A stretch of 64,000 nt of DNA. It comes from Caldilineales bacterium. GTDB taxonomy: Bacteria > Chloroflexota > Anaerolineae > J102. The DNA is taken from contig JAGFJG010000016.1 in NCBI GenBank assembly GCA_024102915.1, positions 22,263 through 86,262 of the forward strand, in the 5' to 3' direction. Numbering within the stretch: position 1 is the stretch's first letter; each line of letters opens with the position of its first letter. Positions 10,612-63,274 of this stretch are shown here, piece by piece. The notes under the pieces are model-generated. The model was given only the letters and a program-made list of their open reading frames with translations. It was not told where the DNA came from and did no database searches. The position numbers and the translations under genes were made by a program.

Positions 10612-10618
10612 TTTCAAC

Positions 10619-10662
10619 GCCCGGATGATGCAAGAACCGCCATCCGGGCGATTTGTTTTTTT
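10619..10662 (+). terminator. Rho-independent terminator after fabH
   Basis: Stem GCCCGGATG / CATCCGGGC with a 13-nt loop, followed by GATTTGTTTTTTT. Confidence 0.65.
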
Positions 10663-10829: not shown

Positions 10830-10864
10830 CGATAGCCTTGCGGTGGAGTGATGGGACGGCTCGT

Positions 10865-12388: not shown

Positions 12389-12458
12389 CCGCCTCCCAAA
12401 CGCGACACAGCCGCCTGGCGGCAGACGGCTGCGATTCATTTTGCGAATAAGCGCTGGT

Positions 12459-13157: not shown

Positions 13158-13394
13158 AGGTTGAAAATCCTCTTAGGGAGTGGTGCGAAGTAAGAGAAGT
13201 TTGGAGATTGATGATTACGACGAAACGATTGCAAATCCATCGTGCGATTGGCGACAGTGAACCATCATGACTCCATTTAAGCCGATGGACGTATGCAGTA
13301 CATAAGATTCAAGTGTGCGGAACATTAAGTCAGCCCCATCATACCGGATTCGCTGCTCGGAAGTTTGACGCCTGGCTGACATTTTGGCGTCAGT

Positions 13395-13895
13395 TCAGGC
13401 ATAGAATGCCTGCCAGATGAAAATCACGACCAGGATCACGCCGACGCTGAATTTCGTCACCATCGCCAGAAGATATCCGATCAACACGCCGCGGCTGGCG
13501 CGCCAGGCCGCCCGCCAATCTCCCTGTCGGTGATAGGTCTCCCAGGCAAGCATGCCCGCCGCCGCGCCGATCAACGCGCCGATTAAGTTGAATACCAGGA
13601 AGCCGATCAGGGCGGCAACGCCGGCAATGATCAGGCCACGCCACGAGGCCCCGCCCTGTCTCGCTCCCAGTGACGCCAGCGCCACATCAGCAAGCTCGAC
13701 TGCAATCACCAGTAGCCCCATCACAAGCAACGTAGGCCAGCCGATCTGCTCAAAGCCATCTGCCCAGGCCCAAAGTAGGGCGCTCAGCCAGATCAGAATC
13801 GTGCCCGGTATCAGCGGTAAAATTGTGCCCAACAGGCCCAAGCCCAGGCCGATGTAAGCGATGAATTGCAGGGCTGCGCTCAAGTCGGGATTCAT
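13395..13895 (-). CDS. DUF456-family membrane protein
   Basis: Small four-helix membrane protein (GTILPLIPGTILIWLSALLW...). It overlaps the upstream nnrE-like stop by 4 nt. Confidence 0.6.
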   Translation of the reverse strand: MNPDLSAALQFIAYIGLGLGLLGTILPLIPGTILIWLSALLWAWADGFEQIGWPTLLVMGLLVIAVELADVALASLGARQGGASWRGLIIAGVAALIGFLVFNLIGALIGAAAGMLAWETYHRQGDWRAAWRASRGVLIGYLLAMVTKFSVGVILVVIFIWQAFYA

Positions 13896-42860: not shown

Positions 42861-45800
42861 TCAGAATGATCGTCGTTGGGGCAAAAGGGCTACTTTCGGC
42901 GGGTCGAGGGCGGCGCGGGGTTTGGGGCCTTTATCCTTCTCATGCTGCACAAAGATGCGCACTTCCTCGCTTTCCTGTTCATTGCCGGCCGTGTCGAAGG
43001 CGACAGCCTTGAACACGTGGGTTTCGGTATAACCGCCCGAATCGTGGATGATGCCAAAGCCGTTGTCGAATGTCTTGATCACTCGATTGGGTTCGTTGGG
43101 ATCGACCGTGACCGAACTGACGATCTTTTCCTGGGCGGTGACGGTTCCGTCGGCGTTTGTAATTATCTCGGTGGCGCGCACCTCGCCCTCGGCCAGGCTT
43201 GGCGGGCGGTCCACCATTTTGATCGTCCAGCGGGCGTTGTACGGAGCAACAGTGGTTGTGACGATGGGCGAGTCGTCGAGATAGAAGACCACCTTGTCCA
43301 TCGACCAGTCATCGGTAGCGAGGGCGTTGAGGTTCACCCATTCGTCATCCTCCATCACATACGTCCGGCCATTGGCAGGCCCGATCATGTTGACGGTGGG
43401 CGGATCATTATCCACGGTGAGGGGGATGGCGTTTTGGCGGACATTGCCGCTGTTCTCGATCACGCTCAGACGCAGGGTGAATGGCCCATTCAGCCCGGTC
43501 GTGTCCCAATATTCCAAGGGGCCACGATCCACCTGGTTGTAGTGGTCGGGGCCAATCTGCTGCCAGTTTTGCGGTTGCAGGCCCTGGCCGAAATGAAGCT
43601 GGTACAGCCGAAAATCGCCGTTGCGGGCATTGCCCAGGATGTCGAAGCCGCCTTTGACGTAGCTAAATGGCGCGGGCTGAGCGATTGCCACTTCCTCGCT
43701 GGTGAAGACGGCACCGTAGGTATCGTCGAATTCGCGCGGCGGCAATTCCAGATTCCCGGCCTCAGCCTGCTCGTTCGCCCAATCGGCGGCCACAGGCGGA
43801 TAAACGCGATAGACGCGGCGTTCGATCAATTCCGGCGGCGTATAGGGCGTGGCCAGCCGCCCATTTTCACGATTGATCTCGAACACCTGATACACATTGT
43901 CGTAAGTGGTGGGCTCGGTGCCGGCGATGAACAATTCGGTTTTGCGGCGCTGGCACAGATCGGTGGGCAAAAGCCCGCTGTCCACGCAAACTGTCTTGCG
44001 TACCATGCCCTCCGGCTCTTCCCATCCTTCCACCGGCATGCCCTCGTGGGCGGCCTCCATGATATCGTAGAAAATCGGCGCCGCCCCGACCGAACCGGAA
44101 ATGCGATCCATAGGGGCGTTATCGGCATTGCCGACCCACACACCCACAGCAATCTGCGGCGATGCGCCCAGCGTCCAGCTATCCCGATAATCATTGGTCG
44201 TGCCTGTCTTGGCGATGATAGGACGATCGGGCAGTTGCAGATACCGGGAGTAGATGCCGAACGCTGCCGGGCGCGGTGCGGGATCGCTCAGGATGTTATC
44301 CATCAAATAACCCAACTGCGGACTGATCACGCGCAGTTCGTCCGGGCCATCATATTTATAGAGGATGGAACCCGTGCGGTCGCGCACTTCCAGCACCGAA
44401 ACCGGGTCGAGCGTGCGGTAACCTGGGCGCAGATTCTCTTCCGCGATCGCCTCGCCTTTCATAACGCCATTGTTTGCCAGAGTGGCGAAGACATAGGCCA
44501 TATCCAGCAACTTGACTTCACCGCCGCCTAGCGTCAGGCTCAGGCCATAATAATCCTTGTTCAGACTGGTGATGCCCATGCGGTGCGCCATATTGACCAC
44601 GTTCTTAACCCCGACCTGATTCATCACCCACACGGCTGGGATGTTGTACGAACGCTGCAAGGCGTCACGCAGGCTGACGACTCCGTGATAATTGCGGTCG
44701 TAGTTTTCGGGCGTGTAGGGCTCGACGGCGTCGGGGAAGACCTGGCGCACATCCATCACTGCGGTGGCTGCGTTCAAGCCCTGGCTGAATCCGGTGAGGT
44801 AGGTCAGCGGCTTGAAGGAGGAGCCGGGCTGGCGGTCGGCCAGGGCGATATTCACTTCGCCATCGATCTCAGCATTGTTGTAGTCCAGGGACCCCAGCAT
44901 TGCCAATATCTCGCCGGTCTTGGCATCAAGCACCACGGCGGCGGCATTCGACACCTTGGCCTCGTCATCATTTTTGATCACTCGAATGCCCTCTGCCGGT
45001 TCCAACTTCTCGCAACCGGGCAGGTCGGGGTTTTCGCCGTTGACATGAGCGATGCGCTGGCGGGCGATGCAGGCGACTTTCTCCTGCATGTCTACGTCCA
45101 GCGTTGTGATCACCGTGAGACCGTTGCGCCAGATAAAGAAGGGATCTTCGGGCGTATTGAACTTGCGCTTGACCTCTTCCAGGGCATACAGGGCGAAATG
45201 CGGGGCGATATCGATGTCGAAGCGTTCCAATGCGGATTCTCGCACCTGGAGTTCCTCGGCGAATGCGGCATCAGCCTGCTCCTGGGTGATGTAGCCCGCC
45301 TCGACCATCGAGGTGAGCACTTTGCCCTGCCGCCGCTTGGCATCCTCAGGCGCTTGAATCGGGTTCAGGCCGGGGAACTGGGGCAGCGCCGCCAGCATGG
45401 AAGCTTCAGCCAGGTCAATCTCGCTGGCTGATTTTCCAAAGTAGATCTGCGAAGCCGACTCGATCCCATAGCTGAAATTACCGTAGAAATTGTTGTTTAA
45501 ATACCATTCCAGAATCTGTTCTTTGGAGAACTGATTGGTCAGTTCCACGGCCATGAGCGCTTCCTTAATTTTGCGAGTATAGGAACGCTCATATTGCTCT
45601 TCCAGCGTGAAGAAATTCTGCTTGATCAGCTGTTGCGTGATGCTGGACGCGCCCTGAATCTGGCCGCCCTGAACATTCTGGACAAAGGCGCGGGCGATAC
45701 CGCGCGGATTGACGCCGGGGTTGGTCCAGAACGAGCGATCTTCCAGCGCCACGGTGGCGTTGATCAGGTAAGGGCTGATCTCGTCCAGGGCCATATAGGT

Positions 45801-46115
45801 GCGGTCGCCACGGAAGGGCCGGGGATCGATGCTCTCGAACAACAGGTGCTGGCCCGTGCGATCGTAAATTTTGACCGTCTCGAAATGTTCCTGTTCGGTG
45901 ACGATGCTGCTGGGGTCTGGCAGGTCACGCGTGAAGTAAACATAGACGCCGCCCGCCACAGCGGCGGCAGCGGCTGTCGATACAAGTGTGAGAATCAAAG
46001 CTGCCACCAGGGCGATCGCCGTAATGCGGGCGACAGTCACCCAGCCTGGGGTGCGGCTGGCTTCCGCCCGGCGACGAATACGCCTGGTGATCATGATGCG
46101 AGTTGAACGATTCAT
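42861..46115 (-). CDS. Class A penicillin-binding protein (PBP1A: glycosyltransferase plus transpeptidase) with a long C-terminal Ig-like extension
   Basis: GT51 motifs EDRSFWTNPGVNPRG, GASSITQQL and RKIKEAL. Transpeptidase motifs SSFKP (SxxK), SYN (SxN) and KTGTT. One N-terminal TM helix. Start placed at ATG 46115; the track begins at TTG 46136. Confidence 0.85.
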   Translation of the reverse strand: MNRSTRIMITRRIRRRAEASRTPGWVTVARITAIALVAALILTLVSTAAAAAVAGGVYVYFTRDLPDPSSIVTEQEHFETVKIYDRTGQHLLFESIDPRPFRGDRTYMALDEISPYLINATVALEDRSFWTNPGVNPRGIARAFVQNVQGGQIQGASSITQQLIKQNFFTLEEQYERSYTRKIKEALMAVELTNQFSKEQILEWYLNNNFYGNFSYGIESASQIYFGKSASEIDLAEASMLAALPQFPGLNPIQAPEDAKRRQGKVLTSMVEAGYITQEQADAAFAEELQVRESALERFDIDIAPHFALYALEEVKRKFNTPEDPFFIWRNGLTVITTLDVDMQEKVACIARQRIAHVNGENPDLPGCEKLEPAEGIRVIKNDDEAKVSNAAAVVLDAKTGEILAMLGSLDYNNAEIDGEVNIALADRQPGSSFKPLTYLTGFSQGLNAATAVMDVRQVFPDAVEPYTPENYDRNYHGVVSLRDALQRSYNIPAVWVMNQVGVKNVVNMAHRMGITSLNKDYYGLSLTLGGGEVKLLDMAYVFATLANNGVMKGEAIAEENLRPGYRTLDPVSVLEVRDRTGSILYKYDGPDELRVISPQLGYLMDNILSDPAPRPAAFGIYSRYLQLPDRPIIAKTGTTNDYRDSWTLGASPQIAVGVWVGNADNAPMDRISGSVGAAPIFYDIMEAAHEGMPVEGWEEPEGMVRKTVCVDSGLLPTDLCQRRKTELFIAGTEPTTYDNVYQVFEINRENGRLATPYTPPELIERRVYRVYPPVAADWANEQAEAGNLELPPREFDDTYGAVFTSEEVAIAQPAPFSYVKGGFDILGNARNGDFRLYQLHFGQGLQPQNWQQIGPDHYNQVDRGPLEYWDTTGLNGPFTLRLSVIENSGNVRQNAIPLTVDNDPPTVNMIGPANGRTYVMEDDEWVNLNALATDDWSMDKVVFYLDDSPIVTTTVAPYNARWTIKMVDRPPSLAEGEVRATEIITNADGTVTAQEKIVSSVTVDPNEPNRVIKTFDNGFGIIHDSGGYTETHVFKAVAFDTAGNEQESEEVRIFVQHEKDKGPKPRAALDPPKVALLPQRRSF

Positions 46116-46249
46116 TCGTAGGTGATATCCGGACAAGGTTAAGGGCGGTGGTAAGACCGCCCTTTTGATGCGAACGCTTATTCTAGCACGGCGCTCGCGT
46201 CGGCGGCAAAGCCGATCTCAATACGCTGCGACCGATGTCGGGGTTCCCC

Positions 46250-46292
46250 GGCAACAACAAAGCCCCCGGTACGGGTGCATCACCGGGGGCTT
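46250..46292 (-). terminator. Terminator-like hairpin downstream of the minus-strand cytochrome operon
   Basis: AAGCCCCCGGT (46260-46270) pairs with ACCGGGGGCTT (46282-46292) around an 11-nt loop. TTGTTGTTG follows on the minus strand. Confidence 0.5.
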
Positions 46293-46300
46293 GAATAACA

Positions 46301-46470
46301 AACTAGGCTGAAGTCACAACAAGAACAGTAGTTTTTTACTCGACGATGGACGACCGACGATAGACGATGGAACTCGCTTTGTCAGTGCTTCCGCCATCGT
46401 CCATCGTCAATGGTCTATCGTCAACGATTGGTCAAAGGTAGCGGTCTCAAACTAACGTCAGTTTAGGTTA
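46301..46470. repeat. MITE-like ~170-bp palindromic repeat element, copy B (inverted relative to copy A)
   Basis: Its reverse complement aligns with 10666-10822 at about 88% identity (19 differences in ~157 nt, hand alignment). The right end abuts the stop codon (46471-46473) of the NapC/NirT-like gene. Confidence 0.75.
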
Positions 46471-48054
46471 TTAGTTGGTCAGCACAGGCGCCAGCTTGTG
46501 GCATTCCGTACAGGCTTCCGCCGGAAATCCCTCGGTCACATGGAATTCGGTGTAGGGGCGCAGACCGTCGGGGCCATGACAGTTGAGACATTGGCCGATG
46601 CGCTGATCATCCAGCGGGTGCGGGATGCGCGGCACGAATTCGGCATCCGGCGTTGGCGCTTCGATCACCGGCTCCGACGACTCTGTCGGTTCGGGCAAAT
46701 AGCTACGCAAACCCGGCGCATTCAATCCGGCGTAAACCCATTTGGTGCCATGACAAGCGCTGTTGGCGCAGAAGGAACTATTATCGGAGCCGCCGCGATT
46801 GTACGTGCTGTGACAGCCCACGCAGGTCTCATCGAACTCTTCGCGGTGGCGGGCCAACCAGTTGCTGTCCATGTGCGATTCTGGCTCCGTACCGCTTTCC
46901 AGGGCGATGACAGGGGCGGGCAGACCAGGACCGGCCACGCGCGGGATCGAATGGCAGATGTTGCATTCCAGGCGGATGGTTTCGCCCTCGGGGCTGACAT
47001 GTTTGCCGTCGTGGCAGCGGAAACAGCCGGGGTCTTCAAGATGCCCGACATTGTTGGGATGCGTCTCCCAACCGACCTGCATCTCCGGGAAGAAGGACTC
47101 CCCGGCCTGTCGCTTGATCTCCTCGATTGCTTTGGCGATCAGCGCTCGGTTTTGCTCGTAGTATTCAGGATAAGTCGTCTTGTACCACGTATCCAGATTC
47201 TCGACAGCGGCATTGAGAGTCTCATGGCTTTCATGTTTACTGGTGAGGATGTTGACTGCCTGGGCCCGGATAAAGGGAATGCTAGGGTCGATGATGCCCT
47301 TGGAAATCGCCTCATCGATGGAACGGTTGGGGTGTTCGAATTTGTGAGAGATGCGGTTATGGCAGTCGATACAATCCATCCGTCGCAGGTTTTGCTCATT
47401 CTCGGCCACATACTCAGGCGTGATATCCGATTCCAGATCGTAGTATTCGGTGACGCGCCCCTCAGCATCCACCTCGCGCACATAGGGGATATCCTGCTTG
47501 AGAGGATCGTTGGGCAGGAACCAGACCTCATTTTCGACATGCCAGTGGATGCCACGGCCCAGGCCCTCGCGGGAGCTGCCGCCGCCCGTTTTCAGGGCGA
47601 GAATCGTACGGCGTTCGGTGTTTCTTTCGTCATTGCCAAAACTTTGGATTTCCTTAACCGAATCATTGGAAAACTTGTCTGGGTTGTGACACTGTTCGCA
47701 GGTATCGCGGGCAGGGCGAAGATTCCTCACATAGATCGGGATCTCATAATCCTGGGTCAGTGCGTAGACAACGTGCCGCACTTCCATCGCCTTGCGCGGC
47801 AACGCCCGCAATACCGATTCCTGGCCCAGATGGCAATCGACGCAGGCCACGCGGGCGTGCGGCGAATGTTGGTAGGCGACATATTCTGGCGGCATCGTGT
47901 GACAGGTGGTGCCGCAAAACTCCGTGCTATTGGTGTATTCCCAGGCCGTCACGCCGCCCGCGAAGACGGCCATGCCTATGAGCAAGAGAATGAAGAGCGA
48001 GACGAGAGTGAGTTTCCAGTGTTCTCTCACCCAGCGGAAGAATCGGCGGATCAT
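46471..48054 (-). CDS. NapC/NirT-family membrane-anchored multihaem cytochrome c, extended (10 haem motifs)
   Basis: An N-terminal TM helix is followed by the NapC/NirT-like tetrahaem spacing. Eight CxxCH motifs are present (CVDCH, CEQCH, CIDCH, CFRCH, CNICH, CVGCH, CLNCH, CTECH). Two variants are also present: CGTTCH (Cx3CH) and CANSACH (Cx4CH). Confidence 0.8.
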   Translation of the reverse strand: MIRRFFRWVREHWKLTLVSLFILLLIGMAVFAGGVTAWEYTNSTEFCGTTCHTMPPEYVAYQHSPHARVACVDCHLGQESVLRALPRKAMEVRHVVYALTQDYEIPIYVRNLRPARDTCEQCHNPDKFSNDSVKEIQSFGNDERNTERRTILALKTGGGSSREGLGRGIHWHVENEVWFLPNDPLKQDIPYVREVDAEGRVTEYYDLESDITPEYVAENEQNLRRMDCIDCHNRISHKFEHPNRSIDEAISKGIIDPSIPFIRAQAVNILTSKHESHETLNAAVENLDTWYKTTYPEYYEQNRALIAKAIEEIKRQAGESFFPEMQVGWETHPNNVGHLEDPGCFRCHDGKHVSPEGETIRLECNICHSIPRVAGPGLPAPVIALESGTEPESHMDSNWLARHREEFDETCVGCHSTYNRGGSDNSSFCANSACHGTKWVYAGLNAPGLRSYLPEPTESSEPVIEAPTPDAEFVPRIPHPLDDQRIGQCLNCHGPDGLRPYTEFHVTEGFPAEACTECHKLAPVLTN

Positions 48055-48176
48055 ACGGAAGGATTACCTCGGAGGGATAGTCAGACATCGGGCGACAATA
48101 GCGCCCTGATAATGCTGATAATAACTCAAATTCAATGCAAGCCGCCAATCCAAATCTGGAGCGTTCGGAACGGAAC

Positions 48177-49541
48177 CTAGTTGTTGGGCGCACCGGCGGC
48201 AATCCACAATCGAACACGTTCCAGTTGTTCAGGCGTAAGACGGGTGGGATGCGCTTCGACGGGCATAGACTGTACAAGCAACAGGCGGCTGTGATCAGGA
48301 TCGCCGGGAATAATGACAGGCCCGGAAGCTCCGCCCTGCATCAGGCTGCGATAGCTGATCAGGTTGAGTGAACTGCTGGTACCGTGGCAGGCGACGCACT
48401 TGGCATTGATGATGGGACGGATCGAGGATGCAAAACTGGGAATGTCCAACGCCTCGACAGTGGGGAGTTCGCCATTGTTCGTTTCGAGCAATACATGACA
48501 ACTCAGGCAGGTCTCATTCCCCAAAGCCAACTCGTCATGGAAAGGCGTAAAGGGTTGGATGGCGCCCAGGCCGTGACAGGAAAGACAGTCCTCGCGTCCT
48601 TCGCTGATGGCATGGGGAATTGGCGGCGCTGCTGACCGCCGAGCCGTCATTGCCTGCTCTGGATCAGGCGTGGGCGTGGGCGTCGGCGTCGCTCGCACGA
48701 ATGCCTCGCCTTGCTCCGGCAGAGGCGGCACGGTGGCAATGGCAGTCTGCTCGTAAGTGATGAAAAAGTAAAGGACGACGACGAAAATCAGGGTCGAGAC
48801 AAAAGCGAAGGGCAGATAAATGCGTTCACGGCGGCGGATCACCTCTCGCGGCGGCTCCGGTCGGACATCCCCGGCCTCGATTCGTTCCAGCTCGCGGCCA
48901 TGTTCGTGCTCCATTTGCTCGCGCGTGAGCTTGCCGGTGAAGATGCTGCGATTGAAGGTCTTGAGATGGACGTTGTACATATGCCAGACCACAATCGCCA
49001 GAAAAGCCAGGAGGGCTTCGCCGCCATGGGCGGCCTTCGCCGCCGGAATCCAACTGCCTGGGAAAAACCGGGTGATTGAGATCGGGTTCCAGAGCATGAA
49101 CCCAGTCAACACCATCACCCCTGTGCCCCAGACCACCGCCCAGTACTCCAGCTTTTCCTCAAAGCTATAGCGATCGTACTTGGGGCGATTACGGGCCAAC
49201 CCCAGATTGTAACGGATGGCATCGATGAAATCGATCACGTCCTGGAACGAAGGCAGCATAGCGGGCGAGACGCGGCGGACATAGAGCTTGTATCCCACAG
49301 CTAGAATGTGATAGGCGCTTTCGATGATCATGATGATGGCGGCGAGGCGATGGATGATCCGCACAGTCTCGACCCCGCCCATCCAATTGATCATCGTCAT
49401 CGCCCAGGGCGCGGGCGCGTATTTCTGGGGGATGCCGGTGATGACCAGAACCGTAAACGAAACCAACAGCAGCAGGTGTTCCACCCGATCCATGCGGGCG
49501 AAACGCACATAATACTCCTTCACTTTAGAATTGGCGCTCAT
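48177..49541 (-). CDS. FdnI/HydC-like b-type cytochrome membrane subunit fused to a C-terminal trihaem c domain
   Basis: N-terminal RFARMDRVEHLLLLVSFTVLVITG plus 4-5 helices with conserved His (IIH, AHGGE..WHMY), as in formate-dehydrogenase-gamma / Ni-Fe hydrogenase cytochrome b. The tail has CLSCH, CLSCH and CVACHG...GGASGPVIIPGDPDHSRLL, which resembles the Planctomycete-type cytochrome c domain. Confidence 0.75.
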   Translation of the reverse strand: MSANSKVKEYYVRFARMDRVEHLLLLVSFTVLVITGIPQKYAPAPWAMTMINWMGGVETVRIIHRLAAIIMIIESAYHILAVGYKLYVRRVSPAMLPSFQDVIDFIDAIRYNLGLARNRPKYDRYSFEEKLEYWAVVWGTGVMVLTGFMLWNPISITRFFPGSWIPAAKAAHGGEALLAFLAIVVWHMYNVHLKTFNRSIFTGKLTREQMEHEHGRELERIEAGDVRPEPPREVIRRRERIYLPFAFVSTLIFVVVLYFFITYEQTAIATVPPLPEQGEAFVRATPTPTPTPDPEQAMTARRSAAPPIPHAISEGREDCLSCHGLGAIQPFTPFHDELALGNETCLSCHVLLETNNGELPTVEALDIPSFASSIRPIINAKCVACHGTSSSLNLISYRSLMQGGASGPVIIPGDPDHSRLLLVQSMPVEAHPTRLTPEQLERVRLWIAAGAPNN

Positions 49542-50668
49542 GCTCCCTCCCCTCCGTGTCCCTGGTCATGTCCCCGACCAAAGATGCGGCCCACGATGCG
49601 CCGGATGGCATCGAGTGAGACGAATGCGATCATGAAACCGATCGTGCCGGGAATGATCAGCAGATAGAACAGGTTGATGTAGTAGACCAGGGGGTTGTGT
49701 TCTTTGTCCGGGATATAGTGGCTGGTCCAGGAGGTGGGGAAGTTGGCGTCGGCATCGGGATGGCAGCGCTGGCATGTCACCAGCAGATTCTCTTTGACGA
49801 CCAAGGCATTCGGATCATCGATCGCCTTGATATTGTGGATGCCATGACAGTCATAACAGACTGCCTTGTTGGTTAGCTGATCGGGTGACTGCCGCTCGAA
49901 TAGCGTGACCGTCGTGCCGTGGAAATCAGCCACATAGGTATTGAACACATCGGTCGAAATCCCATACTTCGACATCAATGCTTCATCGGCATGGCATTCG
50001 CCGCACAACTCCGGCGATTTGATGCGGAATTCGGCTGTGCGCGGGTCTTCCATGCTGTGCACCCCATGACAATCCACGCAAGTGGGCACATCCGGATTGC
50101 TCTCATCGAACAAAGCGGCGCCATGAACGCTTTCTTTATAATTATCGAAGATCGTGGCGTGGCACTGGCTGCAAGTGGCCGAAACCTGCTGGCGAGGTTC
50201 GTGGGGATTGCTTATATCATGGCTGCCATGACAATCGGTGCAAATGGCCGCATCGCGGTTGCCGCCCGCCAGCAACTTGGCATGCATCGAGTCCAGGGTG
50301 GCGTCGTATTGCTCGGAATGGCAGTTACGACAGGCCTCATAACGGTCGATCTGGAAGTCGCGGCGGCTGTTCGCATTGAGCGGCGGATGCGGATAACCGG
50401 AGATATTTGTATGGCAGGCGGTGCAGGTCAGGTGCTCTTGCCCGTGAACCGAATCACTGAAAACTTCGGCATCGACATAGAGCGACATCACCTCGCCATT
50501 CGCCAGTTCGATCTCGCGGTCGGGAATGCCATGACAGGCAAGACATGTATTGTTGGGATCGCCGCTCTGGGCTGGCGGGGCGGCTTGCGTTGTTGGAATT
50601 CCGGCAAGAAAAAGGAGCGCCAGGGCCAGGGTGAGGGCCGCGATGGGCAGGCGGGAAAGGAAGGGCAT
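49538..50668 (-). CDS. Nonahaem c-type cytochrome with signal peptide and C-terminal membrane anchor
   Basis: Nine CxxCH motifs (CLACH, CTACH, CRNCH, CTDCH, CSQCH, CVDCH, CGECH, CYDCH, CQRCH). Signal peptide ...AGIPTTQA. C-terminal helix LFYLLIIPGTIGFMIAFVSL. The stop overlaps the cytochrome b start by 4 nt. Confidence 0.85.
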   Translation of the reverse strand: MPFLSRLPIAALTLALALLFLAGIPTTQAAPPAQSGDPNNTCLACHGIPDREIELANGEVMSLYVDAEVFSDSVHGQEHLTCTACHTNISGYPHPPLNANSRRDFQIDRYEACRNCHSEQYDATLDSMHAKLLAGGNRDAAICTDCHGSHDISNPHEPRQQVSATCSQCHATIFDNYKESVHGAALFDESNPDVPTCVDCHGVHSMEDPRTAEFRIKSPELCGECHADEALMSKYGISTDVFNTYVADFHGTTVTLFERQSPDQLTNKAVCYDCHGIHNIKAIDDPNALVVKENLLVTCQRCHPDADANFPTSWTSHYIPDKEHNPLVYYINLFYLLIIPGTIGFMIAFVSLDAIRRIVGRIFGRGHDQGHGGEGA

Positions 50669-50693
50669 TGAAGTGAGTCAGCGGGAGGGGTAA

Positions 50694-50754
50694 AGGTATT
50701 GGTAAATTGGGTATCGGATATTAGGGGCTATCGGCCAAATACCCAATACCCAAT
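50694..50754. repeat. Heptamer-based hairpin inside the cytochrome operon (28-haem / 9-haem spacer)
   Basis: ATTGGGTAT (50706-50714) is perfectly complementary to ATACCCAAT (50739-50747). The flanks read GGTATTG GTAAATT GGGTATC GGATATT ... ACCCAAT ACCCAAT. Confidence 0.55.
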
Positions 50755-50765
50755 CAGTTTTCAAC

Positions 50766-53700
50766 TTACTGTGGCCGGTAATACTTGATGCCGGCGCTGG
50801 GGTGGCAGGTGTTGCAGCGGTTGGTGTAACCCGTCTTCGTAACCTGACCGAAGGCGCCGGTGGCGTCCTGACCATGGGTGATGCCTATGTCGGCATAGGT
50901 CATGGCCGGATAATTGACGCCGTCAGCCGTCGATTTGACGCCGTGCGGATCGTGGCAGGTGACGCAGCTTGGCTTCGATTCTTTCGTGCCGTCGCCGTCG
51001 CTATCCCAGGCCAGTTGGTTCATGTCGAGATGATCCCAATGGATGTTGGCAGGCACATTACCGAAGTAAAAGCCCTGCGCCGACTCGTTTCGGAAACTCG
51101 TGATGACGGGATCGACCTGAAGAGGATATCCGGCAGGCGGCGGATTGGAATGCGTAAACAACGCGTTGCTGTATCCTGGCCCCATCCCCACCTGGTTGGG
51201 TTCCAGATGGCAGGTGTAGCACAGTGCGTAATTCGACTTCTGATAGGATTCAGAATCGGTGATTGGCACGTTCAGCCCGCCGAAATTAAGCCAGAGAGCC
51301 TGCTGGTAATTATCAGCAGCGGCCTTATAAGTTTGGGCTACGCCATCGAAATGGATGCTGTTCTGCCCCTTCTGATGGCAGGTTATGCAGGCGAAACCCT
51401 TACTGCCGTGGCCGGTGACGGCGAAGCCGTAAGTCGAACCATCGCCTACCACGTTGGGAGCGGGAACGCCCTTGACCATGGCCGGAGCGTTATCGTGGCA
51501 GCCTTCGCAGCTTAAAGCGCCGCCGCTCGACCACTTGCTCTTCGCCTCGGCCACGCCATTCACAGCGCCGCCAGCGCTATGGCAATCATTACAGACGGCA
51601 GTGCTCGACAACGTCTTGCCGTCGGCAAAATTGACCTTGCCGTTGACGTGATCTTCGCTGGGGTAGTTGCTGTGGCAGGTATTGCAAGACTGAATACCGG
51701 GGCCCTGGTTGGAGCTGTCGAAGTGGCGGGCGTGCGCGCCGCTGGTCAAATCCTGCGCATTGACGCCGTGACAGGTTCCGCATGTGCCGCTGGCCGCATT
51801 GCCCCAGAGCGGGGTGCTGAACTTCGGCGTGCCGGGTTGTTCCCGGCTGGCCGCGCCGTCGGAATGGCACAGGCTGTTGGCGCAGGTCAGATCATTCGAT
51901 CGGAAGGCCGAATTATCGATGCGCCCGAAAACGTCCTTGACATTCATCGCCACCTGTTTCTGGAAGTCAACATGATTGTCGATATTCGCCACGGCATCGT
52001 TATTGTTGTTCTGCGCCGTCACGCTATGGCATTCGAAACACCCGATGGAATCATCGCCCCGGTCTTTGTAGTTGGGCGTCAGGTGTTTTCCATGGCTGCC
52101 TGTGGTGAGATTGGTCTGATCATTATGGCATCCGGCACAGGTCAATGTTGCGCCTTCCGCCCAAACCGGATTCTTGTACACCAGTTGACCAGTGCTGGGT
52201 GCGCCGTTGCTGTGGCAACCCACCGTAGCACAGGTGCGCGACGTGCGATCATAGCTGCCGCCGGGATTCAGCGAATCGAAGAATACATCCTGGAACGAAG
52301 GCGGCGAGGTGATGTGACCGCTGTAACCGGGGGCGGCATCATTGTGGCAGGCGCTGCATTCCAGCCCATATTGGCCGGGATCATCACCCGCATGGATGAG
52401 ATGAGGAGTCAGATTTTCGTTGAGGGGATAATCATTGCGGCTGGCCGGCGGCGGCGGCGTGCCATGACAGGCGTCGCATCCGCCCACAGGCATAAACGCA
52501 TCCGCCGTTCCCGGAACGCCATCCGTTTCGTGCCTGTGGCAAGAGGTGCAGTCGGCGCCCTCGAAGTGGGGGTTCTCATTCCAATTGCTGGGATTGCGGT
52601 TGTGCGCAGTCGTGGTATGGCAGGTGGCGCAGAGATCGTTGGCGTTGTTGTCGCCCGGCGGATCAAAGCTGAACTCACCGGTCCGGGCCAGGAAAGCCAC
52701 CGGATTGTTGCGAATCTGAGGGCGAATGGCGCTCAGATTGCTGCTGCCATGCGCGTTGTGGCAATTGACGCATGTCTCCACAAAGGGGTCTTGTGTGGCG
52801 GCGTCGAAAGCCTGATTGCCGTGGGCGCTGACATCCATGCCCGCGCGGCTGGAGTCGGCATGACAGCGAGCGCACAATTCGTTTGGCGGAGCCAGCAGTC
52901 GAGGGTTGGACGCATCCGTAAAGTGGGGGGCGTCAGGATTGTGGCAGCTCTGGCAATCAACGCCAGACGCTGCGCCATGTCCATTGACCGCCCAGAACTG
53001 ATCGACCGCCGGTGCGGTCTTGCCGTGCAACACGCCGGGTTTGATGCTGTTATGGCAACCTGTGCAATCCTCGATCTCGCGGTTCGCTCGCCACGCCGAC
53101 TTGGCTTCCAATACGCCCTGCGGCGTGCCGTGGCAGTCATTGCAAACGGCAGTCTGATTCAAGTCCTTGTTGTCCGCCATGTTGACCCAGCCGTTGTAAT
53201 GGCCCTTGTCGGTCCAGTTCTTGACTTTGGGATGACAGGCGGTGCAATTATCCAGGCCAATGTCGGCCTGTTCGTGGCGGCTGTGGGCGCTATTCCCCGG
53301 CGGCGTACCATGACAAGCGCGGCAACTCTGCGGGTTGACGTAGAATCCATCCGTATGCGGATGACACCTGGTGCAATCCTGATCTTCGTAATGGGTCTTA
53401 TTGGCCGATGTGCTGTGATAATTGGTCGTCGTATGACAGGTCTCACAGATAGCCCATGATCCGCCGTCAAAGCGACGGCCATCAAATCGCACCTCTTTGC
53501 CAAAGATCGCCTTCTGGATAAGGGCGGCGTTGTCGGTTTTGGCGTGCGGTTCATGGCACGTTGCGCACTCATTCTGCTTATGCGTCAGAGCCGTGGGATG
53601 GCAGGAGTAGCAGGCGGTTTCCGGGTCGGTCACCAACACATGCGGCTGATGACAGGTCATGCAACTGCTGGTCGATGCACTGTAATTGCCATGCGGATTG

Positions 53701-53837
53701 AACGGAGCCCCTTGCAGCGCGGTGACGCGCCACAAATTACTGCTGCCGGCGTTCAACAATAGCAACAGCACAACGGTGAGGATCAGCAAAGGTGCGAACC
53801 TCAGTAGCTTGCTCACGAATCTAGGCATCGACTTCAT
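50766..53837 (-). CDS. Giant multihaem c-type cytochrome (28 haem motifs, 1023 aa), N-terminal membrane/signal anchor
   Basis: I count 26 CxxCH motifs plus 2 Cx4CH motifs (CATVGCH, CANSLCH). Each Cx4CH is followed by a CxxCH, as in the Geobacter CxxxxCH...CxxCH repeat family. Hydrophobic N-terminus LLRFAPLLILTVVLLLLL. Confidence 0.85.
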   Translation of the reverse strand: MKSMPRFVSKLLRFAPLLILTVVLLLLLNAGSSNLWRVTALQGAPFNPHGNYSASTSSCMTCHQPHVLVTDPETACYSCHPTALTHKQNECATCHEPHAKTDNAALIQKAIFGKEVRFDGRRFDGGSWAICETCHTTTNYHSTSANKTHYEDQDCTRCHPHTDGFYVNPQSCRACHGTPPGNSAHSRHEQADIGLDNCTACHPKVKNWTDKGHYNGWVNMADNKDLNQTAVCNDCHGTPQGVLEAKSAWRANREIEDCTGCHNSIKPGVLHGKTAPAVDQFWAVNGHGAASGVDCQSCHNPDAPHFTDASNPRLLAPPNELCARCHADSSRAGMDVSAHGNQAFDAATQDPFVETCVNCHNAHGSSNLSAIRPQIRNNPVAFLARTGEFSFDPPGDNNANDLCATCHTTTAHNRNPSNWNENPHFEGADCTSCHRHETDGVPGTADAFMPVGGCDACHGTPPPPASRNDYPLNENLTPHLIHAGDDPGQYGLECSACHNDAAPGYSGHITSPPSFQDVFFDSLNPGGSYDRTSRTCATVGCHSNGAPSTGQLVYKNPVWAEGATLTCAGCHNDQTNLTTGSHGKHLTPNYKDRGDDSIGCFECHSVTAQNNNNDAVANIDNHVDFQKQVAMNVKDVFGRIDNSAFRSNDLTCANSLCHSDGAASREQPGTPKFSTPLWGNAASGTCGTCHGVNAQDLTSGAHARHFDSSNQGPGIQSCNTCHSNYPSEDHVNGKVNFADGKTLSSTAVCNDCHSAGGAVNGVAEAKSKWSSGGALSCEGCHDNAPAMVKGVPAPNVVGDGSTYGFAVTGHGSKGFACITCHQKGQNSIHFDGVAQTYKAAADNYQQALWLNFGGLNVPITDSESYQKSNYALCYTCHLEPNQVGMGPGYSNALFTHSNPPPAGYPLQVDPVITSFRNESAQGFYFGNVPANIHWDHLDMNQLAWDSDGDGTKESKPSCVTCHDPHGVKSTADGVNYPAMTYADIGITHGQDATGAFGQVTKTGYTNRCNTCHPSAGIKYYRPQ

Positions 53838-53843
53838 CGTGGG

Positions 53844-55604
53844 CTATCTCCGTGCGGTGGGTGGGGAGGAGGGAGCCTGGAATGAGTGGCACTCGATACA
53901 GAGGGCGTCGCCCGCTGCTCTCAGGTCAAAGTCATGCTGCGTGCCGTGCGGGCTGTGGCAGCTTACACAGGACAGTCCCTCTCCGATGACGGGATGGAAA
54001 CCGTGCGGCAAACCGCTATGGCAGGATTCGCAGAGGGCGTTGGTGCGATTTTTCAGCAGGCCATCGATGTTGCCGCTATGGGCGTTGTGGCAGGCGGCGC
54101 ATTGCTCGCGCAATTGGGTGGAATGTTTGCTGTTGGCGAATGTGGCGGCCTGGCCGCTATGGCATTCGCCGCACAACTGCCGCGCCGAAGTCTGCAACAA
54201 ATCCGGGTGACTGCTGCTGTGCGATACATGGCAGGATGTACAATCCCCGGAAGCGACCGGCTGATGTTTGATAGCGCCCTGTTGCAAGTCATGGCAGTCG
54301 GTGCAGATATTGCTTGCCACCGCCGCCAGGGTCGTTCTGCTCTTGCCGTGGAATTCGGTGTGGCACTGTGCGCAATCGCCCGCGGCCACCGGTTCGTGCG
54401 TGCTGCCGGATGAAGCCAGCACGATATCGCTATGACATTCGACGCAGGTCTCGGCCAACTGCGTTCCCGAAGTTTTCGGCTCGTGCGGCGAATGGCAGGA
54501 GGTGCAGGATGGCAGTTTGTCGGCGGAATGATTGGCGAACGTATGCTGCGTGTCGAACTGCTCGGTGTGGCAGGTCTTGCAGATCGCATCCTCCGACTGC
54601 ACCAGGAGGTTGGCGTTGTTGCTGCCATGCCCATCGTGGCAAAGCAGACATTCACCCACGGCCAGGCTGGGATGCGGTTGGCTCACCATCTGCCCGTGAT
54701 CTTGATGGCATTCGTTACAAGATGCCGCCTGGGTCTCGGCCAGCAAGGGTGCATCCGGCCCCTGGTGGAATCCGCCATGACAATCAGAGCACTTGCCTTC
54801 GGCAAATGGCTGGTGCGGATGACTGAAGCTGTCCGGCTCCGGCAGATCGGTATGGCATTGTTCGCAGGCTTCCCGGTCCAGCGTCATCTCTGAGGGTGGA
54901 TGGGGGTCGTGCGGATCATGGCATAGGCTGCACTGGATGTTTTCATCCTGGGCATGGCTGGCGAAGCTAATGGACGGATCCGTCTGATCGGTATGGCAGG
55001 TTCCGCACAATTTCTGCTGAGGCTGGCGCAGGATAGCGGCATTGTCGGAACCATGCGACACATGGCAAAGATTACACTCGCCCGCGGCCAGGTCGGGATG
55101 CGGTTGATCGATCTCGCCACCCAAATCCTTGTGACACTCATTGCAAGCGTCATTGACATTCGTGACCATGAGCGCGGGATAGGCGCTGGCGTGGGGATTA
55201 TGGCAGGAGGTGCAATCCCCGCGGGCGAATGGCTGGTGCGGGTGACTGACCGGCGATTCGGGATCGGGCAAATCCTGCCAGTGACAATCCCGGCAAACAG
55301 CATCCTGCGTCCCCCACAACTGTTTTGGATCCGACCCGCTGAGATCATGGCACGCGCCACAGGCCCCATCCCCAAACGGCGGATGCACGTAATCCAGGCT
55401 ATCCAAAGGCGCTGGACCCAAACCCGCCGCGATCGCATCAGCTGGCGGCGTGGGCGTGAAAAAGGGCGTCGGCGTGGGTGTGGGCGTCCCTTCCGGCCCG
55501 GAATCGCGACGACAGCTATTGAGGACGAGGATCGCCAGGATTAATAGCGCTGTCAGAGCTGCAATAGGAAGAAGGCGGCGCCAGCGCTGCGAGTGCAATG
55601 TCAT
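53844..55604 (-). CDS. 22-haem c-type cytochrome, probable lipoprotein with Pro/Thr linker (polymer of c7/c3-like modules)
   Basis: 22 CxxCH motifs. N-terminal LLILAILVLNSC is a lipobox-like Cys, followed by GTPTPTPTPFFTPTPP. The unit HP(H/D)xP(F/L)AxGxCxxCHxxH...CxxCH recurs about 7-8 times. Confidence 0.85.
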   Translation of the reverse strand: MTLHSQRWRRLLPIAALTALLILAILVLNSCRRDSGPEGTPTPTPTPFFTPTPPADAIAAGLGPAPLDSLDYVHPPFGDGACGACHDLSGSDPKQLWGTQDAVCRDCHWQDLPDPESPVSHPHQPFARGDCTSCHNPHASAYPALMVTNVNDACNECHKDLGGEIDQPHPDLAAGECNLCHVSHGSDNAAILRQPQQKLCGTCHTDQTDPSISFASHAQDENIQCSLCHDPHDPHPPSEMTLDREACEQCHTDLPEPDSFSHPHQPFAEGKCSDCHGGFHQGPDAPLLAETQAASCNECHQDHGQMVSQPHPSLAVGECLLCHDGHGSNNANLLVQSEDAICKTCHTEQFDTQHTFANHSADKLPSCTSCHSPHEPKTSGTQLAETCVECHSDIVLASSGSTHEPVAAGDCAQCHTEFHGKSRTTLAAVASNICTDCHDLQQGAIKHQPVASGDCTSCHVSHSSSHPDLLQTSARQLCGECHSGQAATFANSKHSTQLREQCAACHNAHSGNIDGLLKNRTNALCESCHSGLPHGFHPVIGEGLSCVSCHSPHGTQHDFDLRAAGDALCIECHSFQAPSSPPTARR

Positions 55605-55948
55605 GCTTTACAAAGAATCCAGGGAATGATTAGGGCATTATAACGCAGAATGAGAAATGTGAATATGATATTAATCAGGTTCCTAGTGCGCAAATTGTGA
55701 CACATGGATCGGACAGACCCTTCATCATGGAGGATAATCTGCCGCGCGTGCATCCGAATATGCCTTGTTGCATCAAGAAATAGTCCATCGAAGTCGAAAC
55801 AAGTGCAAAAATTACCTCCAATTATGACAAAGATCATGTCGCAACTTAGAAACGAGTGCTATTCTATTTTAACGTGTCAGTTCAGGCTGACAGTCGGGAA
55901 TAGTTTATAAGGCCAAACTTGCCACTATCTTGAACGGAGGCGACTCAC
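55605..55948. promoter_or_regulatory. AT-rich divergent control region between the two cytochrome operons
   Basis: A 344-bp non-coding, visibly AT-rich spacer between the divergent starts at 55604 (-) and 55949 (+). It contains the palindrome TGTGACACA (~55696-55704) and the hairpin TGTCAG-ttcagg-CTGACA (~55875-55892). Confidence 0.4.
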
Positions 55949-56416
55949 GTGAAAGACCCAGTTCAGATTTTCAACAACGAGCAGAAAACCGATCGTCGTG
56001 GATTCCTGAAGCTTTTGTTGGGTTTTTCCGGGCTGGTCACAGCCGTTGGCGTTCTCACGCCCGTGATCGGCTATTTGTGGCCGCCTAAGCAGGCGTCGAC
56101 AGTAGGCGCTGGCCGGGTGCCGGTAGGATCGACCGAAGAATTTCCTGTGGGGCAGGGCAAGGTTGTGCCGGTGGATGGCAAACCAGTGATAATTGTAAAC
56201 ACAGATCAAGGCGGATTAACCGCCTACTCAGCCGTCTGCACGCATTTGGGCTGCGTTGTGGAATGGGACGATAGAAGGCAATTCATTCTTTGCCCCTGCC
56301 ATGATGGACGATTCAACGCCATCAATGGCGCTGTAATCTCTGGCCCGCCACCCACGCCTCTGCCTGAATTGCCCCTCGTCGTGGAGCAGGATACCGTTTA
56401 CGTCTCACCCGCCTAA
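55949..56416 (+). CDS. Rieske [2Fe-2S] subunit with twin-arginine signal
   Basis: GTG start with GGAGG 8 nt upstream. Tat motif DRRGFLKLLLG. Cluster boxes CTHLGC and CPCHDGRF. Confidence 0.9.
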   Translation: MKDPVQIFNNEQKTDRRGFLKLLLGFSGLVTAVGVLTPVIGYLWPPKQASTVGAGRVPVGSTEEFPVGQGKVVPVDGKPVIIVNTDQGGLTAYSAVCTHLGCVVEWDDRRQFILCPCHDGRFNAINGAVISGPPPTPLPELPLVVEQDTVYVSPA

Positions 56417-56445
56417 ATCTCATCGATCAATTCGCAGGAGGCGAC

Positions 56446-57507
56446 ATGGAGGCTAAGAAATCGAGCTTTAACCGGATGTGGGATTGGGTGGATACACGTT
56501 ACCGTGCCAATGAACTGATCCAGGCGCTGCTTCACGTCGAGATCCCGCGCTCGGCCAAAACTTTCTATTTCGGCGGGATCACACTCTTCTTTTTCATCGT
56601 CCAAGCCGCAACCGGCATCCTGCTGTCTATTTACTATCAGCCATCGCCCGATTCAGCTTTTAACAGCATTCTTTTCATTATGAATAACGTGCGCTTCGGC
56701 TGGCTGATCCGCAGCATTCACGCCTGGAGCGCCAATCTCATGGTGCTGTTCTGCGTACTGCATCTGCTGCGCATTTTCTTCCAGGCAGCTTATAAGAAGC
56801 CCAGAGAGATGACGTGGGTATTTGGCGTAGTCCTGTTGGGCGTAACCCTGGTGTTCGGTTTCACAGGCTATCTCTTGCCCTGGGACCAACGGGCTTACTG
56901 GGCGACAGTGGTAGGAAGCGAGATCGCCGGGGCGTTGCCCATCGTGGGCGGGCAACTGCTCACCTTCCTGCGCGGCGGCGCTGACATCACCGCAGCAACC
57001 CTGACCCGATTTTTCGGCATCCATGTACTCATACTCCCGGTTACTCTGGCGCTGGTGCTGGTCATCCATATCACGATGGTGCACCAACAGGGCCTTGCTG
57101 ACCCCAAACGTGAAAAAGTGGATGACCAGTCGCGCAAAAAGAGGCTCCTGCCTTTCTTCCCGAATTATGTACTCGATGAAATGATCGCCTGGTATCTGAT
57201 GCTGGCCGGATTAATCGTACTGGCATCCGTTTTCCCCGGCGGATTGGAGGAACCGGCCGACCCCCTGCGTACGCCCGAACACACAAAACCGGAATGGTAT
57301 TTTCTTTTCCTCTACCAGGCCTTGAAAGTAGTGCCTCGCATCATCGGCGTCACTTTGCCCATCATCGGCGGCATTCTCTTGTTATTACTGCCATTCATCG
57401 ATCGCAGCCCCTATGTCGAACTCAGGAAACGTCCTGTGGCTCTGGCGGTGGGCGTTATCTGCGTGGCTGGCATTGTCGGATTCACGATATGGGGCTGGCT
57501 AAGCTAG
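56446..57507 (+). CDS. Cytochrome b, fused b6 plus subunit-IV type
   Basis: AGGAGG RBS. Haem ligands are spaced H-x13-H (IHAWSANLMVLFCVLH) and H-x14-H (IHVLILPVTLALVLVIH), which is the b6 pattern. The PEWY motif (KPEWYFLFLYQ) sits in the subunit-IV-like C-terminal part. Confidence 0.9.
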   Translation: MEAKKSSFNRMWDWVDTRYRANELIQALLHVEIPRSAKTFYFGGITLFFFIVQAATGILLSIYYQPSPDSAFNSILFIMNNVRFGWLIRSIHAWSANLMVLFCVLHLLRIFFQAAYKKPREMTWVFGVVLLGVTLVFGFTGYLLPWDQRAYWATVVGSEIAGALPIVGGQLLTFLRGGADITAATLTRFFGIHVLILPVTLALVLVIHITMVHQQGLADPKREKVDDQSRKKRLLPFFPNYVLDEMIAWYLMLAGLIVLASVFPGGLEEPADPLRTPEHTKPEWYFLFLYQALKVVPRIIGVTLPIIGGILLLLLPFIDRSPYVELRKRPVALAVGVICVAGIVGFTIWGWLS

Positions 57508-57523
57508 CACAGGGAGCAATGTC

Positions 57524-62694: not shown

Positions 62695-63274
62695 TGCTAT
62701 TCCTCCTCTAAGTGAAAAAAGCAATGCAGCGATGGGGTGGATGCGGGGTGATTACCAATTGTGCAGCAGATGCAGCAAATACATCTTAGTGCACATCTCG
62801 TACTCCCCTTGTACAAATGTATACTAACATGATAGCAAGATTAATGGAAATCCGATATGATCTATGTCAGGTTAATCAAAAATAAATTTGGGTTCGTGGG
62901 ATGAGAGGACGACGATCGGGGGGCCGCAGGTCGGGAAACAGGGTGATGCCGAGTCGGGCAGGGTAGCGATGAACATTTAGCGAAAAATCACGCAATAGTC
63001 CGACAAAAAAGTGAATTCGTTCACCAAAACTGATCTAAGTCATATTCAAACCGCATTTGCAGCGCGAAAATAGAAGCGCTTGAAGTGTCGCAATCTCGCA
63101 TGGACGCTTTCTTCGCACGACCTTCTGGCATACCAACACCGGCCGGGCTGCGCCACAACGCTGGGGCTAACATCGCATCAGCCTAGCTGGATCATCATGG
63201 AGATGGATTGACGATCACCGGCTTCGGTCAGAGATTGGCAATCTGTCATTGCCGTGTTCAAAGGAGCAAACGTT

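Follow-up and report, generated by a model that had tools for sequence, protein, structure and literature searches.

The 64,000-nucleotide (nt) stretch of DNA analysed here (the window, to whose positions all coordinates refer unless a locus is named) comes from a Chloroflexota bacterium, the nearest relatives of which are metagenome-assembled genomes (MAGs) of Caldilineales and Anaerolineae. It carries two overlapping minus-strand genes, designated C and D, encoding a nonahaem c-type cytochrome and a membrane-bound cytochrome b whose C-terminal tail bears three additional c haems. The two proteins together probably constitute a two-subunit homologue of the inner-membrane bc-cytochromes of the CbcL/MtoC/MtrH class, which would oxidise menaquinol and feed outer haem proteins. 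The three-haem tail on a CbcL-type b subunit has apparently not been described before; the C/D pair itself is common in Chloroflexota, not rare. The two genes and the relevant parts of D are as follows (aa, amino acids; pLDDT, predicted local distance difference test).

50668..49538, minus strand: gene C, 376 aa, nonahaem c-type cytochrome with 9 CxxCH motifs
49541..48177, minus strand: gene D, 454 aa, cytochrome b with 3 CxxCH motifs in the tail
49538..49541, minus strand: ATGA overlap of the C stop and D start codons (C frame GCA TGA, D frame ATG AGC)
48855..49514, minus strand: FdnI/HydC-type dihaem cytochrome b domain, D aa 10-229 (Pfam, FdnI alignment, invariant His, model)
48756..48848, minus strand: fifth membrane helix, D aa 232-262 (model pLDDT above 90; alignment to the terminal helix of the CbcL homologue)
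48495..48620, minus strand: dihaem cassette, D aa 308-349, tail c haems 1 and 2 (IPH-x6-C-xx-CH ... P-x-x-x-H ... C-xx-CH)
48180..48434, minus strand: PSCyt1-type monohaem cytochrome c domain, D aa 370-454 (PF07635, model)

A preliminary description of this locus had reported two separate genes with a 4-nt overlap at 49538-49541, and the open reading frames (ORFs) indeed lie exactly at these coordinates. Just upstream of the D start codon there is a GGAGG-rich, Shine-Dalgarno-like stretch, which together with the ATGA overlap suggests that C and D may be translationally coupled.

CbcL of Geobacter transfers respiratory electrons from the quinone pool of the membrane towards the outside of the cell and is needed to reduce extracellular acceptors of low potential. 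In CbcL, nine c haems are located in the N-terminal half of the protein and are followed by six membrane helices; helices 1, 2 and 3 each contain one candidate ligand histidine, and helix 5 contains a pair like that of FdnI (PMC6295460; 10.1101/2021.04.15.440034; PMC9129911). The protein used for comparison was not GSU0274 itself (CbcL of Geobacter sulfurreducens), but a near full-length homologue from Desulfuromonas thiophila (locus L081, 2697-4001 and 4001-4540 joined), which was traced with machine-read fragments of G. sulfurreducens CbcL taken from the supplement of PMC9129911. These bait fragments returned three C-terminal CbcL fragments, all from Desulfuromonadales, one of them placed on a 2.9-Mb contig of D. 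thiophila. In D. thiophila the gene is annotated in two parts, of 434 aa and 179 aa, that meet at nucleotide 4001 within the b domain; this division is most likely not natural but due to a frameshift or sequencing error, or to the gene being a pseudogene.

BLASTP analysis supported the proposed CbcL-likeness of C, which matched the haem domain of the D. thiophila homologue with E 3e-32 and 30% identity, all nine CxxCH motifs being aligned in order. The match of D covered 278 residues (E 3e-34, 29% identity) and reached from the YxRF motif to the last membrane helix, with all four b helices and the cytoplasmic helix included. Comparison of D with both CbcL and FdnI had been recommended, and D proved far nearer to the CbcL homologue than to FdnI (E 4e-8). 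When C and D were concatenated, 643 columns could be aligned colinearly in one piece (28% identity, E 4e-71); the linker helix, the four b-haem histidines and the last CbcL helix are all covered, as is each of the nine haem motifs. Several features are shared by D and the CbcL homologue and are absent from FdnI, namely (i) W-x-GG in the first outer loop, (ii) LW-x-P...PG-x-W in the second outer loop and (iii) E-K at the start of helix III. The membrane helices, i.e. the anchor of C, helices I-IV of D and helix 5 of D, add up to six, as in CbcL. The colinear alignment and the shared motifs thus indicate that C plus D correspond to a CbcL cut between helices 1 and 2, to which a tail has been added.

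The order of the parts is also that of CbcL (GSU0274): a nine-CxxCH periplasmic domain, a linker helix, a dihaem b domain and one further helix. The system described here differs in three respects. First, the c and b parts of CbcL family members are fused in one polypeptide, whereas here they form two, the cut lying between the linker helix and the b domain. Second, CbcL ends at its last helix (the Desulfuromonas homologue stops a few residues past it), while D runs approximately 190 aa further and carries three c haems in this extension. Third, the host lineage of the C-D pair is considered monoderm in the literature, unlike the setting of CbcL. In a published survey of the CbcL/MtoC/MtrH family, haems were found in the N-terminal part only and no member was recorded in Chloroflexi (PMC6295460).

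The second protein had been described as a b-type membrane protein (RFARMDRVEH...ITG), and matches to PF01292 and FdnI bear this out. PF01292 was detected at aa 14-196 of D (E 4e-11, above the curated cut-off); the NCBIfam FdnI models matched below their equivalog cut-offs (45.7 vs 115.85 bits and similar). By sequence, the only solved relative is FdnI of Escherichia coli (1kqf_C; E 4e-8, ~20% identity), whose His18, His57, His155 and His169 align with His22, His64, His172 and His187 of D, all of which are invariant in 30 diverse homologues. We take His18/His169 of FdnI to be the ligand pair of the cytoplasmic-side haem (aligned with His22/His187 of D) and His57/His155 presumably to be that of the outer-side haem (aligned with His64/His172). 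FdnI (PDB 1kqf chain C) and D have in common the four-helix fold, the four b-haem histidines, an N-terminus on the inside and a cytoplasmic helical segment after helix IV. They differ in that the partner of FdnI is FdnGH and that of D is a cytochrome, and in the additional fifth helix and c-haem tail of D.

A model of D was generated with AlphaFold2 from a 30-homologue alignment (mean pLDDT 80.6, >90 through the membrane part). It contains helices at residues 16-40, 57-87, 127-151, 164-194 and 232-262, as well as a cytoplasmic amphipathic segment within the b domain. A Foldseek search of the PDB with this model placed 1kqf_C first (E 3e-7, TM-score 0.78 on the target, rmsd 3.7 angstroms, 224 columns), the runner-up being the hydrogenase-1 cytochrome b (HyaC).

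The topology of D was deduced on the assumption that it has the orientation of FdnI, with the N-terminus inside. Given this orientation and the odd number of helices (five), the part of D that follows residue 262 is predicted to lie outside, where attachment of c-type haem occurs. The distribution of charged residues is in line with this arrangement, since the three inside segments contain 16 lysines and arginines in 91 aa vs 4 in 68 aa outside; the topology prediction that had been called for thus places the tail on the extracytoplasmic and not the cytoplasmic side. Helix 5 opens with REVIRRRER on the cytoplasmic side and is followed, outside, by the invariant E264-x-T266-A267. Among 8000 candidates scored, more than 3442 were related to D at E <= 1e-3, and these relatives bear only generic database labels, such as 'cytochrome b/b6 domain-containing', 'formate dehydrogenase gamma subunit' and 'c-type cytochrome domain-containing'.

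The partner subunit, C, begins with a hydrophobic signal of the Sec type (aa 7-25, ending ...TTQAAPP). Exactly nine CxxCH motifs, at aa 42, 82, 113, 143, 166, 197, 222, 271 and 299, are spread over aa 42-303, and a hydrophobic membrane helix at approximately aa 326-351 is followed by an Arg-rich end, predicted to be cytoplasmic. The nine motifs and the C-terminal anchor ascribed to this protein in the preliminary description were therefore both recovered. No histidine is present inside the anchor helix. Nine histidines outside the CxxCH motifs (75, 94, 129, 150, 182, 204, 250, 278 and 317) are invariant in 28 homologues and are candidate distal ligands, which fits nine bis-His haems, as measured for the haem domain of CbcL (PMC9129911).

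Database comparisons placed C in a large family, with more than 5508 homologues at E <= 1e-3 among the 8000 candidates scored. Pfam detected generic multihaem domains only. The best PDB sequence match (E 9e-5, spanning the first six haem motifs) was 28pb_A, an unnamed 278-aa 'Cytochrome c', which is close in length to the 250-aa haem domain of CbcL. Subsequent matches were haem motifs of nitrite reductase and NrfB, and a profile search performed no better. Foldseek analysis of the C model gave weak matches to the haem packing of hydroxylamine oxidoreductase (E ~3e-3, TM-score ~0.3), which appear uninformative beyond a generic multihaem fold.

The tail of D contains CxxCH motifs at aa 319 (CLSCH), 345 (CLSCH) and 382 (CVACH). 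Following helix 5, it comprises (i) the E-x-T-A motif, (ii) a Pro/Thr-rich linker, (iii) the dihaem cassette, which reads IPHAISEGREDCLSCH...PFTPFH...CLSCH (aa 308-349), and (iv) the PSCyt1-type domain. The resemblance of the last part, with its CVACHG..., to the Planctomycete-type cytochrome c domain, noted in the preliminary description, was substantiated by a match to PF07635 (PSCyt1) at aa 382-421, which includes the CVACH at 382 and scores 29.0 bits vs a Pfam cut-off of 22. This domain is known chiefly from large Planctomycete proteins of unknown function. D has the domain together with its CxxCH motif, the difference being that here the domain terminates a cytochrome b. It was modelled confidently as a small helical fold (pLDDT ~90-94), and the invariant His431 is a candidate distal ligand of its haem. 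Cassettes of the dihaem type recur at the C-terminus of the product of the downstream gene E (aa 454-521, E 1e-8) and also resemble the repeats of a 16-haem protein (E ~1e-5) encoded at 57524-59476, a subunit of the neighbouring Rieske/cytochrome b complex.

Tails of the D family contain 0-12 haems across homologues, the PSCyt1 domain being their most widely conserved part; in the one single-haem member scanned (from Bellilinea, locus L051), PF07635 was found at the sole tail haem. At 68 loci with both genes complete, the presence of a tail was strictly related to the haem number of the partner: 8- or 9-haem partners were accompanied by a tailed b subunit in 61/61 cases, and 14-15-haem partners by a tail-less one in 7/7. 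The 61 tailed pairs carried one tail haem in 33 loci, two in 8, three in 9 and four in 1; longer tails had five haems (1 locus), six (3 loci), eight (1), ten (4) or twelve (1). The lone eight-haem partner belongs to the locus with the four-haem tail, all the other tailed pairs having nine-haem partners. The tail-less b subunits (~290 aa) are encoded by seven loci of the Litorilinea/Caldilineaceae group (L038, L041, L064, L066, L068, L069 and L074). In the one such partner examined, the 15-haem protein of L041, the additional haems are located at the N-terminal end, well away from the membrane anchor. The trihaem tail of the window and those of its closest relatives (L001-L007) can be described as having one dihaem cassette added to the commonest, single-haem state. 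The tail of D may accordingly be regarded as an interchangeable extension, or the output end of a haem wire, which would be accessory and outside the catalytic core.

The distribution of the pair was determined by scanning one genome per species for relatives of D, which were found in at least 552 species genomes; the gene context was analysed at the 80 best loci. Seventy-nine of these carry the label Chloroflexota (Anaerolineae, Caldilineales); the remaining locus is from a MAG labelled Actinomycetota. Cultured Bellilinea caldifistulae (strain GOMI-1, L051) is represented among the 80, as is a MAG attributed to Litorilinea aerophila (L074). Since even the best locus is only 61% identical, the species from which the window derives is not among the scanned representatives. 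The co-occurrence of the two genes, which had been singled out for verification, was found to be complete: a C homologue (46-74% identity) is located directly upstream of the b gene, on the same strand, in 80/80 loci, and its stop codon lies at, overlaps or falls within a few bases of the b-gene start. All of the best 120 D relatives contain the b domain and the fifth helix, followed by a C-terminal segment with 1-12 CxxCH motifs. An exhaustive HMMER search of 1.84 billion cluster representatives (clustered at 50% identity) yielded 1887 clusters at E <= 1e-10, of which 407 reached E <= 1e-30. Thousands of homologues, and the retention of the pair at 80/80 loci, indicate that the C/D architecture is not due to chance.

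Natural fusions of nine N-terminal haems with the b domain were also detected, in P0291 (an Anaerolineae MAG), P0352 (Ca. Schekmanbacteria), P0340 and P0363. A further protein, P0297 (780 aa), combines all the elements in one chain, namely nine haems, the b domain and a tail with four haems. In the b domain, these five proteins show 40-45% identity to D. Judging from the sequences, the split of C and D is genuine and ancestral for a large clade, and fused and split forms both exist within the family.

Split quinol oxidoreductases of the b/c type are already known in Geobacter, as exemplified by CbcBA of G. sulfurreducens (GSU0593-0594; 10.1101/2021.04.15.440034). As in the C-D pair, a multihaem c subunit with a C-terminal anchor helix and a four-helix dihaem b subunit are the products of two adjacent genes. 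However, CbcA has seven haems and C nine, and CbcB is hydrogenase/thiosulfate-reductase-like, with three ligand histidines and a fourth supplied by the anchor of CbcA, whereas D contains all four FdnI-type histidines. CbcBA is stated to lack sequence homology to CbcL (10.1101/2021.04.15.440034); D was set apart from CbcB on the basis of this published description. The view that a b+c fusion beside a nonahaem partner is apparently undescribed still holds, as no description of a nonahaem partner adjacent to a CbcL-type b subunit with a c-haem tail was found in open-access papers and preprints, an absence that is in itself weak evidence.

Genes C and D belong to a series of five successive minus-strand genes (A-E), all of which code for haem-rich proteins, with 68 CxxCH motifs altogether. 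The remaining three are:

55604..53844, minus strand: gene A, 586 aa, 22 CxxCH motifs; first gene of the cluster
53837..50766, minus strand: gene B, 1023 aa, 26 CxxCH motifs and two CxxxxCH-type motifs
48054..46471, minus strand: gene E, 527 aa, 8 CxxCH motifs, CGTTCH and CANSACH

A and B overlap by 8 nt, and gaps of 97 nt and 122 nt separate B from C and D from E, respectively. A scan of 45800-56200 for promoters and terminators gave counts not above the shuffled expectation and hence no operon boundaries. In a wider 17-kb stretch (46.4 to 62.8 kb), seven proteins with a total of 94 CxxCH motifs are encoded. c-Type cytochrome genes are likewise adjacent to many members of the CbcL/MtoC/MtrH family (PMC6295460).

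Protein A has a lipoprotein-like signal (LNSC) and 22 CxxCH motifs spaced very regularly, at approximately 23 residues. It matches TIGR03508 (the DmsE/MtrA decahaem family) with 222.6 bits vs a cut-off of 192.2, in five partial stretches, and therefore looks like a repeated decahaem-type wire. Among the 80 best loci, orthologues of A occur only in the closest relatives L003, L004 and L006. Protein B, which probably serves the cluster as its long conduit for outward electron flow, has an N-terminal hydrophobic anchor, the variant motifs CATVGCH and CANSLCH, and a match to the Geobacter CxxxxCH...CxxCH domain (PF09698 / TIGR01904). The product of gene E is membrane-anchored, and its N-terminus is of the NapC/NirT/NrfH type (PF03264; TIGR03153 below cut-off). 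The first haem motif of E, an unusual CGTTCH followed by T-M, is a CX3CH version of the NrfH signature CxxCHxM, and about six more haems are present. E is a candidate second quinol-interacting module or relay. A homologue of E lies within 7 kb of the C-D pair in 48/80 of the best loci, often immediately downstream, and the conserved module thus really consists of three genes.

Upstream of the cluster, divergently oriented genes (55949-59476, plus strand) encode a Rieske protein, a cytochrome b6-like protein and the 16-haem cytochrome mentioned above (57524-59476). One kb past the Rieske/cytochrome b genes there is a gene for a 743-aa cytochrome with 10 CxxCH motifs (60493-62724, minus strand). 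In L008 (8816-12123) and L012 (9019-12111), Rieske and cytochrome b genes are placed between the C-D pair and the E homologue, so that three different quinol-oxidising modules are genomically linked; the E homologue of L027 is placed downstream in the same way. In L012, PSCyt1 also terminates a cytochrome b subunit-IV/multihaem fusion (10207-12111) and the NrfH-like E homologue (12131-13822). In L051 (6998-8179) it is found at the C-terminus of the CbcL-type b subunit. That PSCyt1 terminates three membrane modules with no relation to one another suggests that it has a common role in docking or output.

The following scheme may be proposed for the C-D complex. D would form the membrane core, an FdnI-type four-helix bundle with two b haems stacked across the membrane, while C would be exported and tethered by its C-terminal helix, so that its nine bis-His c haems would form a chain above the outer surface of D. 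By analogy with FdnI and with the energetics proposed for CbcL (10.1101/2022.08.31.506072), menaquinol would be oxidised near the cytoplasmic-side b haem, with release of the protons inside. Electrons would cross from the inner to the outer b haem and on to the c haems outside, a path helped by the membrane potential, and would then pass to the large multihaem neighbours E, B and A and finally to an external acceptor. Helix 5 of D (equivalent to helix 6 of CbcL) would bring the chain back to the outside, where the modular tail would add three c haems. With protons released inside and electrons moving outward, little energy would be conserved, but acceptors of low potential would become reachable. 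In functional terms, C-D would thus act as a menaquinol:multihaem-cytochrome oxidoreductase feeding the 22-, 26- and 8-haem neighbours. What the sequences show directly is the gene structure, the homology, the conserved haem ligands, the predicted topology, the conservation of the pair and the modularity of the tail; cofactor loading, subunit association, quinone site, electron direction and downstream partners are all inferred here.

A more specific idea is that the tail serves as a standard 'output plug' fitted to unrelated quinol-oxidising modules (CbcL-type b, Rieske/cytochrome b and NrfH-type), all of which would deliver to one common outside acceptor or wire, and that it joins the nine haems of C into a continuous two-polypeptide wire. 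We put this forward tentatively and regard it as rather doubtful. It would explain why the tail is lost exactly when the partner gains six haems. If it is true, the C-D module would represent the missing inner-membrane entry for electron export in a phylum reported to lack a CbcL homologue.

Several observations weigh against the proposed role of the pair. Residues Asn110, Gly112 and Gln113 of FdnI, which we take to line its quinone pocket, are not conserved in D according to the alignment; instead, D and the CbcL homologue have an E129-K130 motif in common, and the location of the quinone site in D is therefore assumed. The dihaem part of the tail was modelled with low confidence (pLDDT below 50), as is usual in haem-dense segments modelled without cofactors. 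The identity of C-D to the CbcL homologue (28-30%) is at the lower edge of the published family range of 28.6-100% (PMC6295460). Finally, among the 80 best loci, orthologues of the multihaem proteins A and B are confined to the closest relatives. Since the pair is present in so many genomes, including that of the fermentative anaerobe Bellilinea caldifistulae, and A and B are so restricted, an extracellular acceptor is not a safe inference for the whole family.

These last points lend some weight to the possibility, which we nevertheless consider unlikely, that C-D belongs to the ordinary respiratory chain of Chloroflexota, as a general quinol:cytochrome c oxidoreductase whose PSCyt1 haem passes electrons to terminal reductases or oxidases at the membrane surface, with an extracellular link that is specific to the window or absent. 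The presence of the pair in at least 552 species genomes and the 407 clusters recovered at E <= 1e-30 would be in keeping with such a general role, as would its proximity to Rieske/cytochrome b genes in L008 and L012 (and in L027, judged by the position of the E homologue) and the PSCyt1 ends of the other L012 modules, which suggest a shared acceptor. However, the pair of the window is situated among 22-, 26- and 8-haem proteins, the cluster contains no terminal reductase gene, and the only characterised relatives serve extracellular electron transfer (PMC6295460).

Alternatively, the complex could operate in reverse, as a quinone reductase: electrons from outside (Fe(II), a cathode or a syntrophic partner) would enter the c haems and pass through the b haems to menaquinone at the cytoplasmic side, with cytoplasmic protons being consumed, as happens in formate dehydrogenase-N. 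Proton-motive force would be built up by this half of a redox loop, in the way that has been suggested for MtoC in Fe(II)-oxidising bacteria. The midpoint potential of menaquinone is low, which would restrict the possible donors to quite reducing ones, and nothing in the window indicates a lithotrophic electron donor; we therefore judge this direction improbable. On the other hand, CbcL shares its family with MtoC and MtrH, quinone reduction is the direction in which the FdnI template itself operates, the survey of the family found no feature by which the sequences of quinol oxidisers could be told from those of quinone reducers (PMC6295460), and Ardenticatena maritima, a cultured member of the Chloroflexota, gives both anodic and cathodic current (PMC5808234).

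There is very little to recommend the reading of D as an ordinary gamma subunit, i.e. a subunit that anchors a periplasmic formate dehydrogenase or [NiFe] hydrogenase in the membrane, despite its automatic annotation ('formate dehydrogenase gamma subunit'), the PF01292 and sub-cut-off FdnI matches and a fold nearest to FdnI and then HyaC: according to the ORFs of the window and Pfam, the A-E cluster contains no formate dehydrogenase, hydrogenase or terminal reductase gene, nor any molybdopterin or FeS subunit gene, the adjacent partner is a C-like multihaem cytochrome in 80/80 loci, and D is nearer to the CbcL homologue (3e-34 vs 4e-8) and has a fifth helix and a c-haem tail missing in FdnI. 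This identity of D is effectively refuted by the gene context.

It is just as hard to credit that the C/D split is an artefact, produced by a frameshift or assembly error in one fused cbcL-like gene. Fused forms do exist in the family, and annotation divides the D. thiophila cbcL homologue, too, into two genes at one frameshift-like point. Nevertheless, this explanation was rejected on the basis of the conservation of the two-gene order, with the stop at or overlapping the start, in 80/80 independent loci, the Shine-Dalgarno-like sequence before the ATG of D, and the alignment of the D N-terminus with the N-termini of its homologues.

Chloroflexota, and Anaerolineae in particular, occur abundantly in sediments, in digesters and in communities on anodes, and possess very large multihaem cytochromes. 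C-D is a concrete, testable candidate for the membrane step by which electrons leave their quinone pool. The present results point to a CbcL homologue that is present and widespread in Chloroflexota, although the earlier survey listed none there (PMC6295460); a search for a fused protein would miss it, since it is split into two genes and its b subunit is lengthened by a variable tail. The tail variants, with 0-12 haems and compensating changes in the partner, provide a natural series for studying how bc-type cytochromes are wired to their acceptors, and cultured carriers are available in Bellilinea caldifistulae and Litorilinea aerophila.

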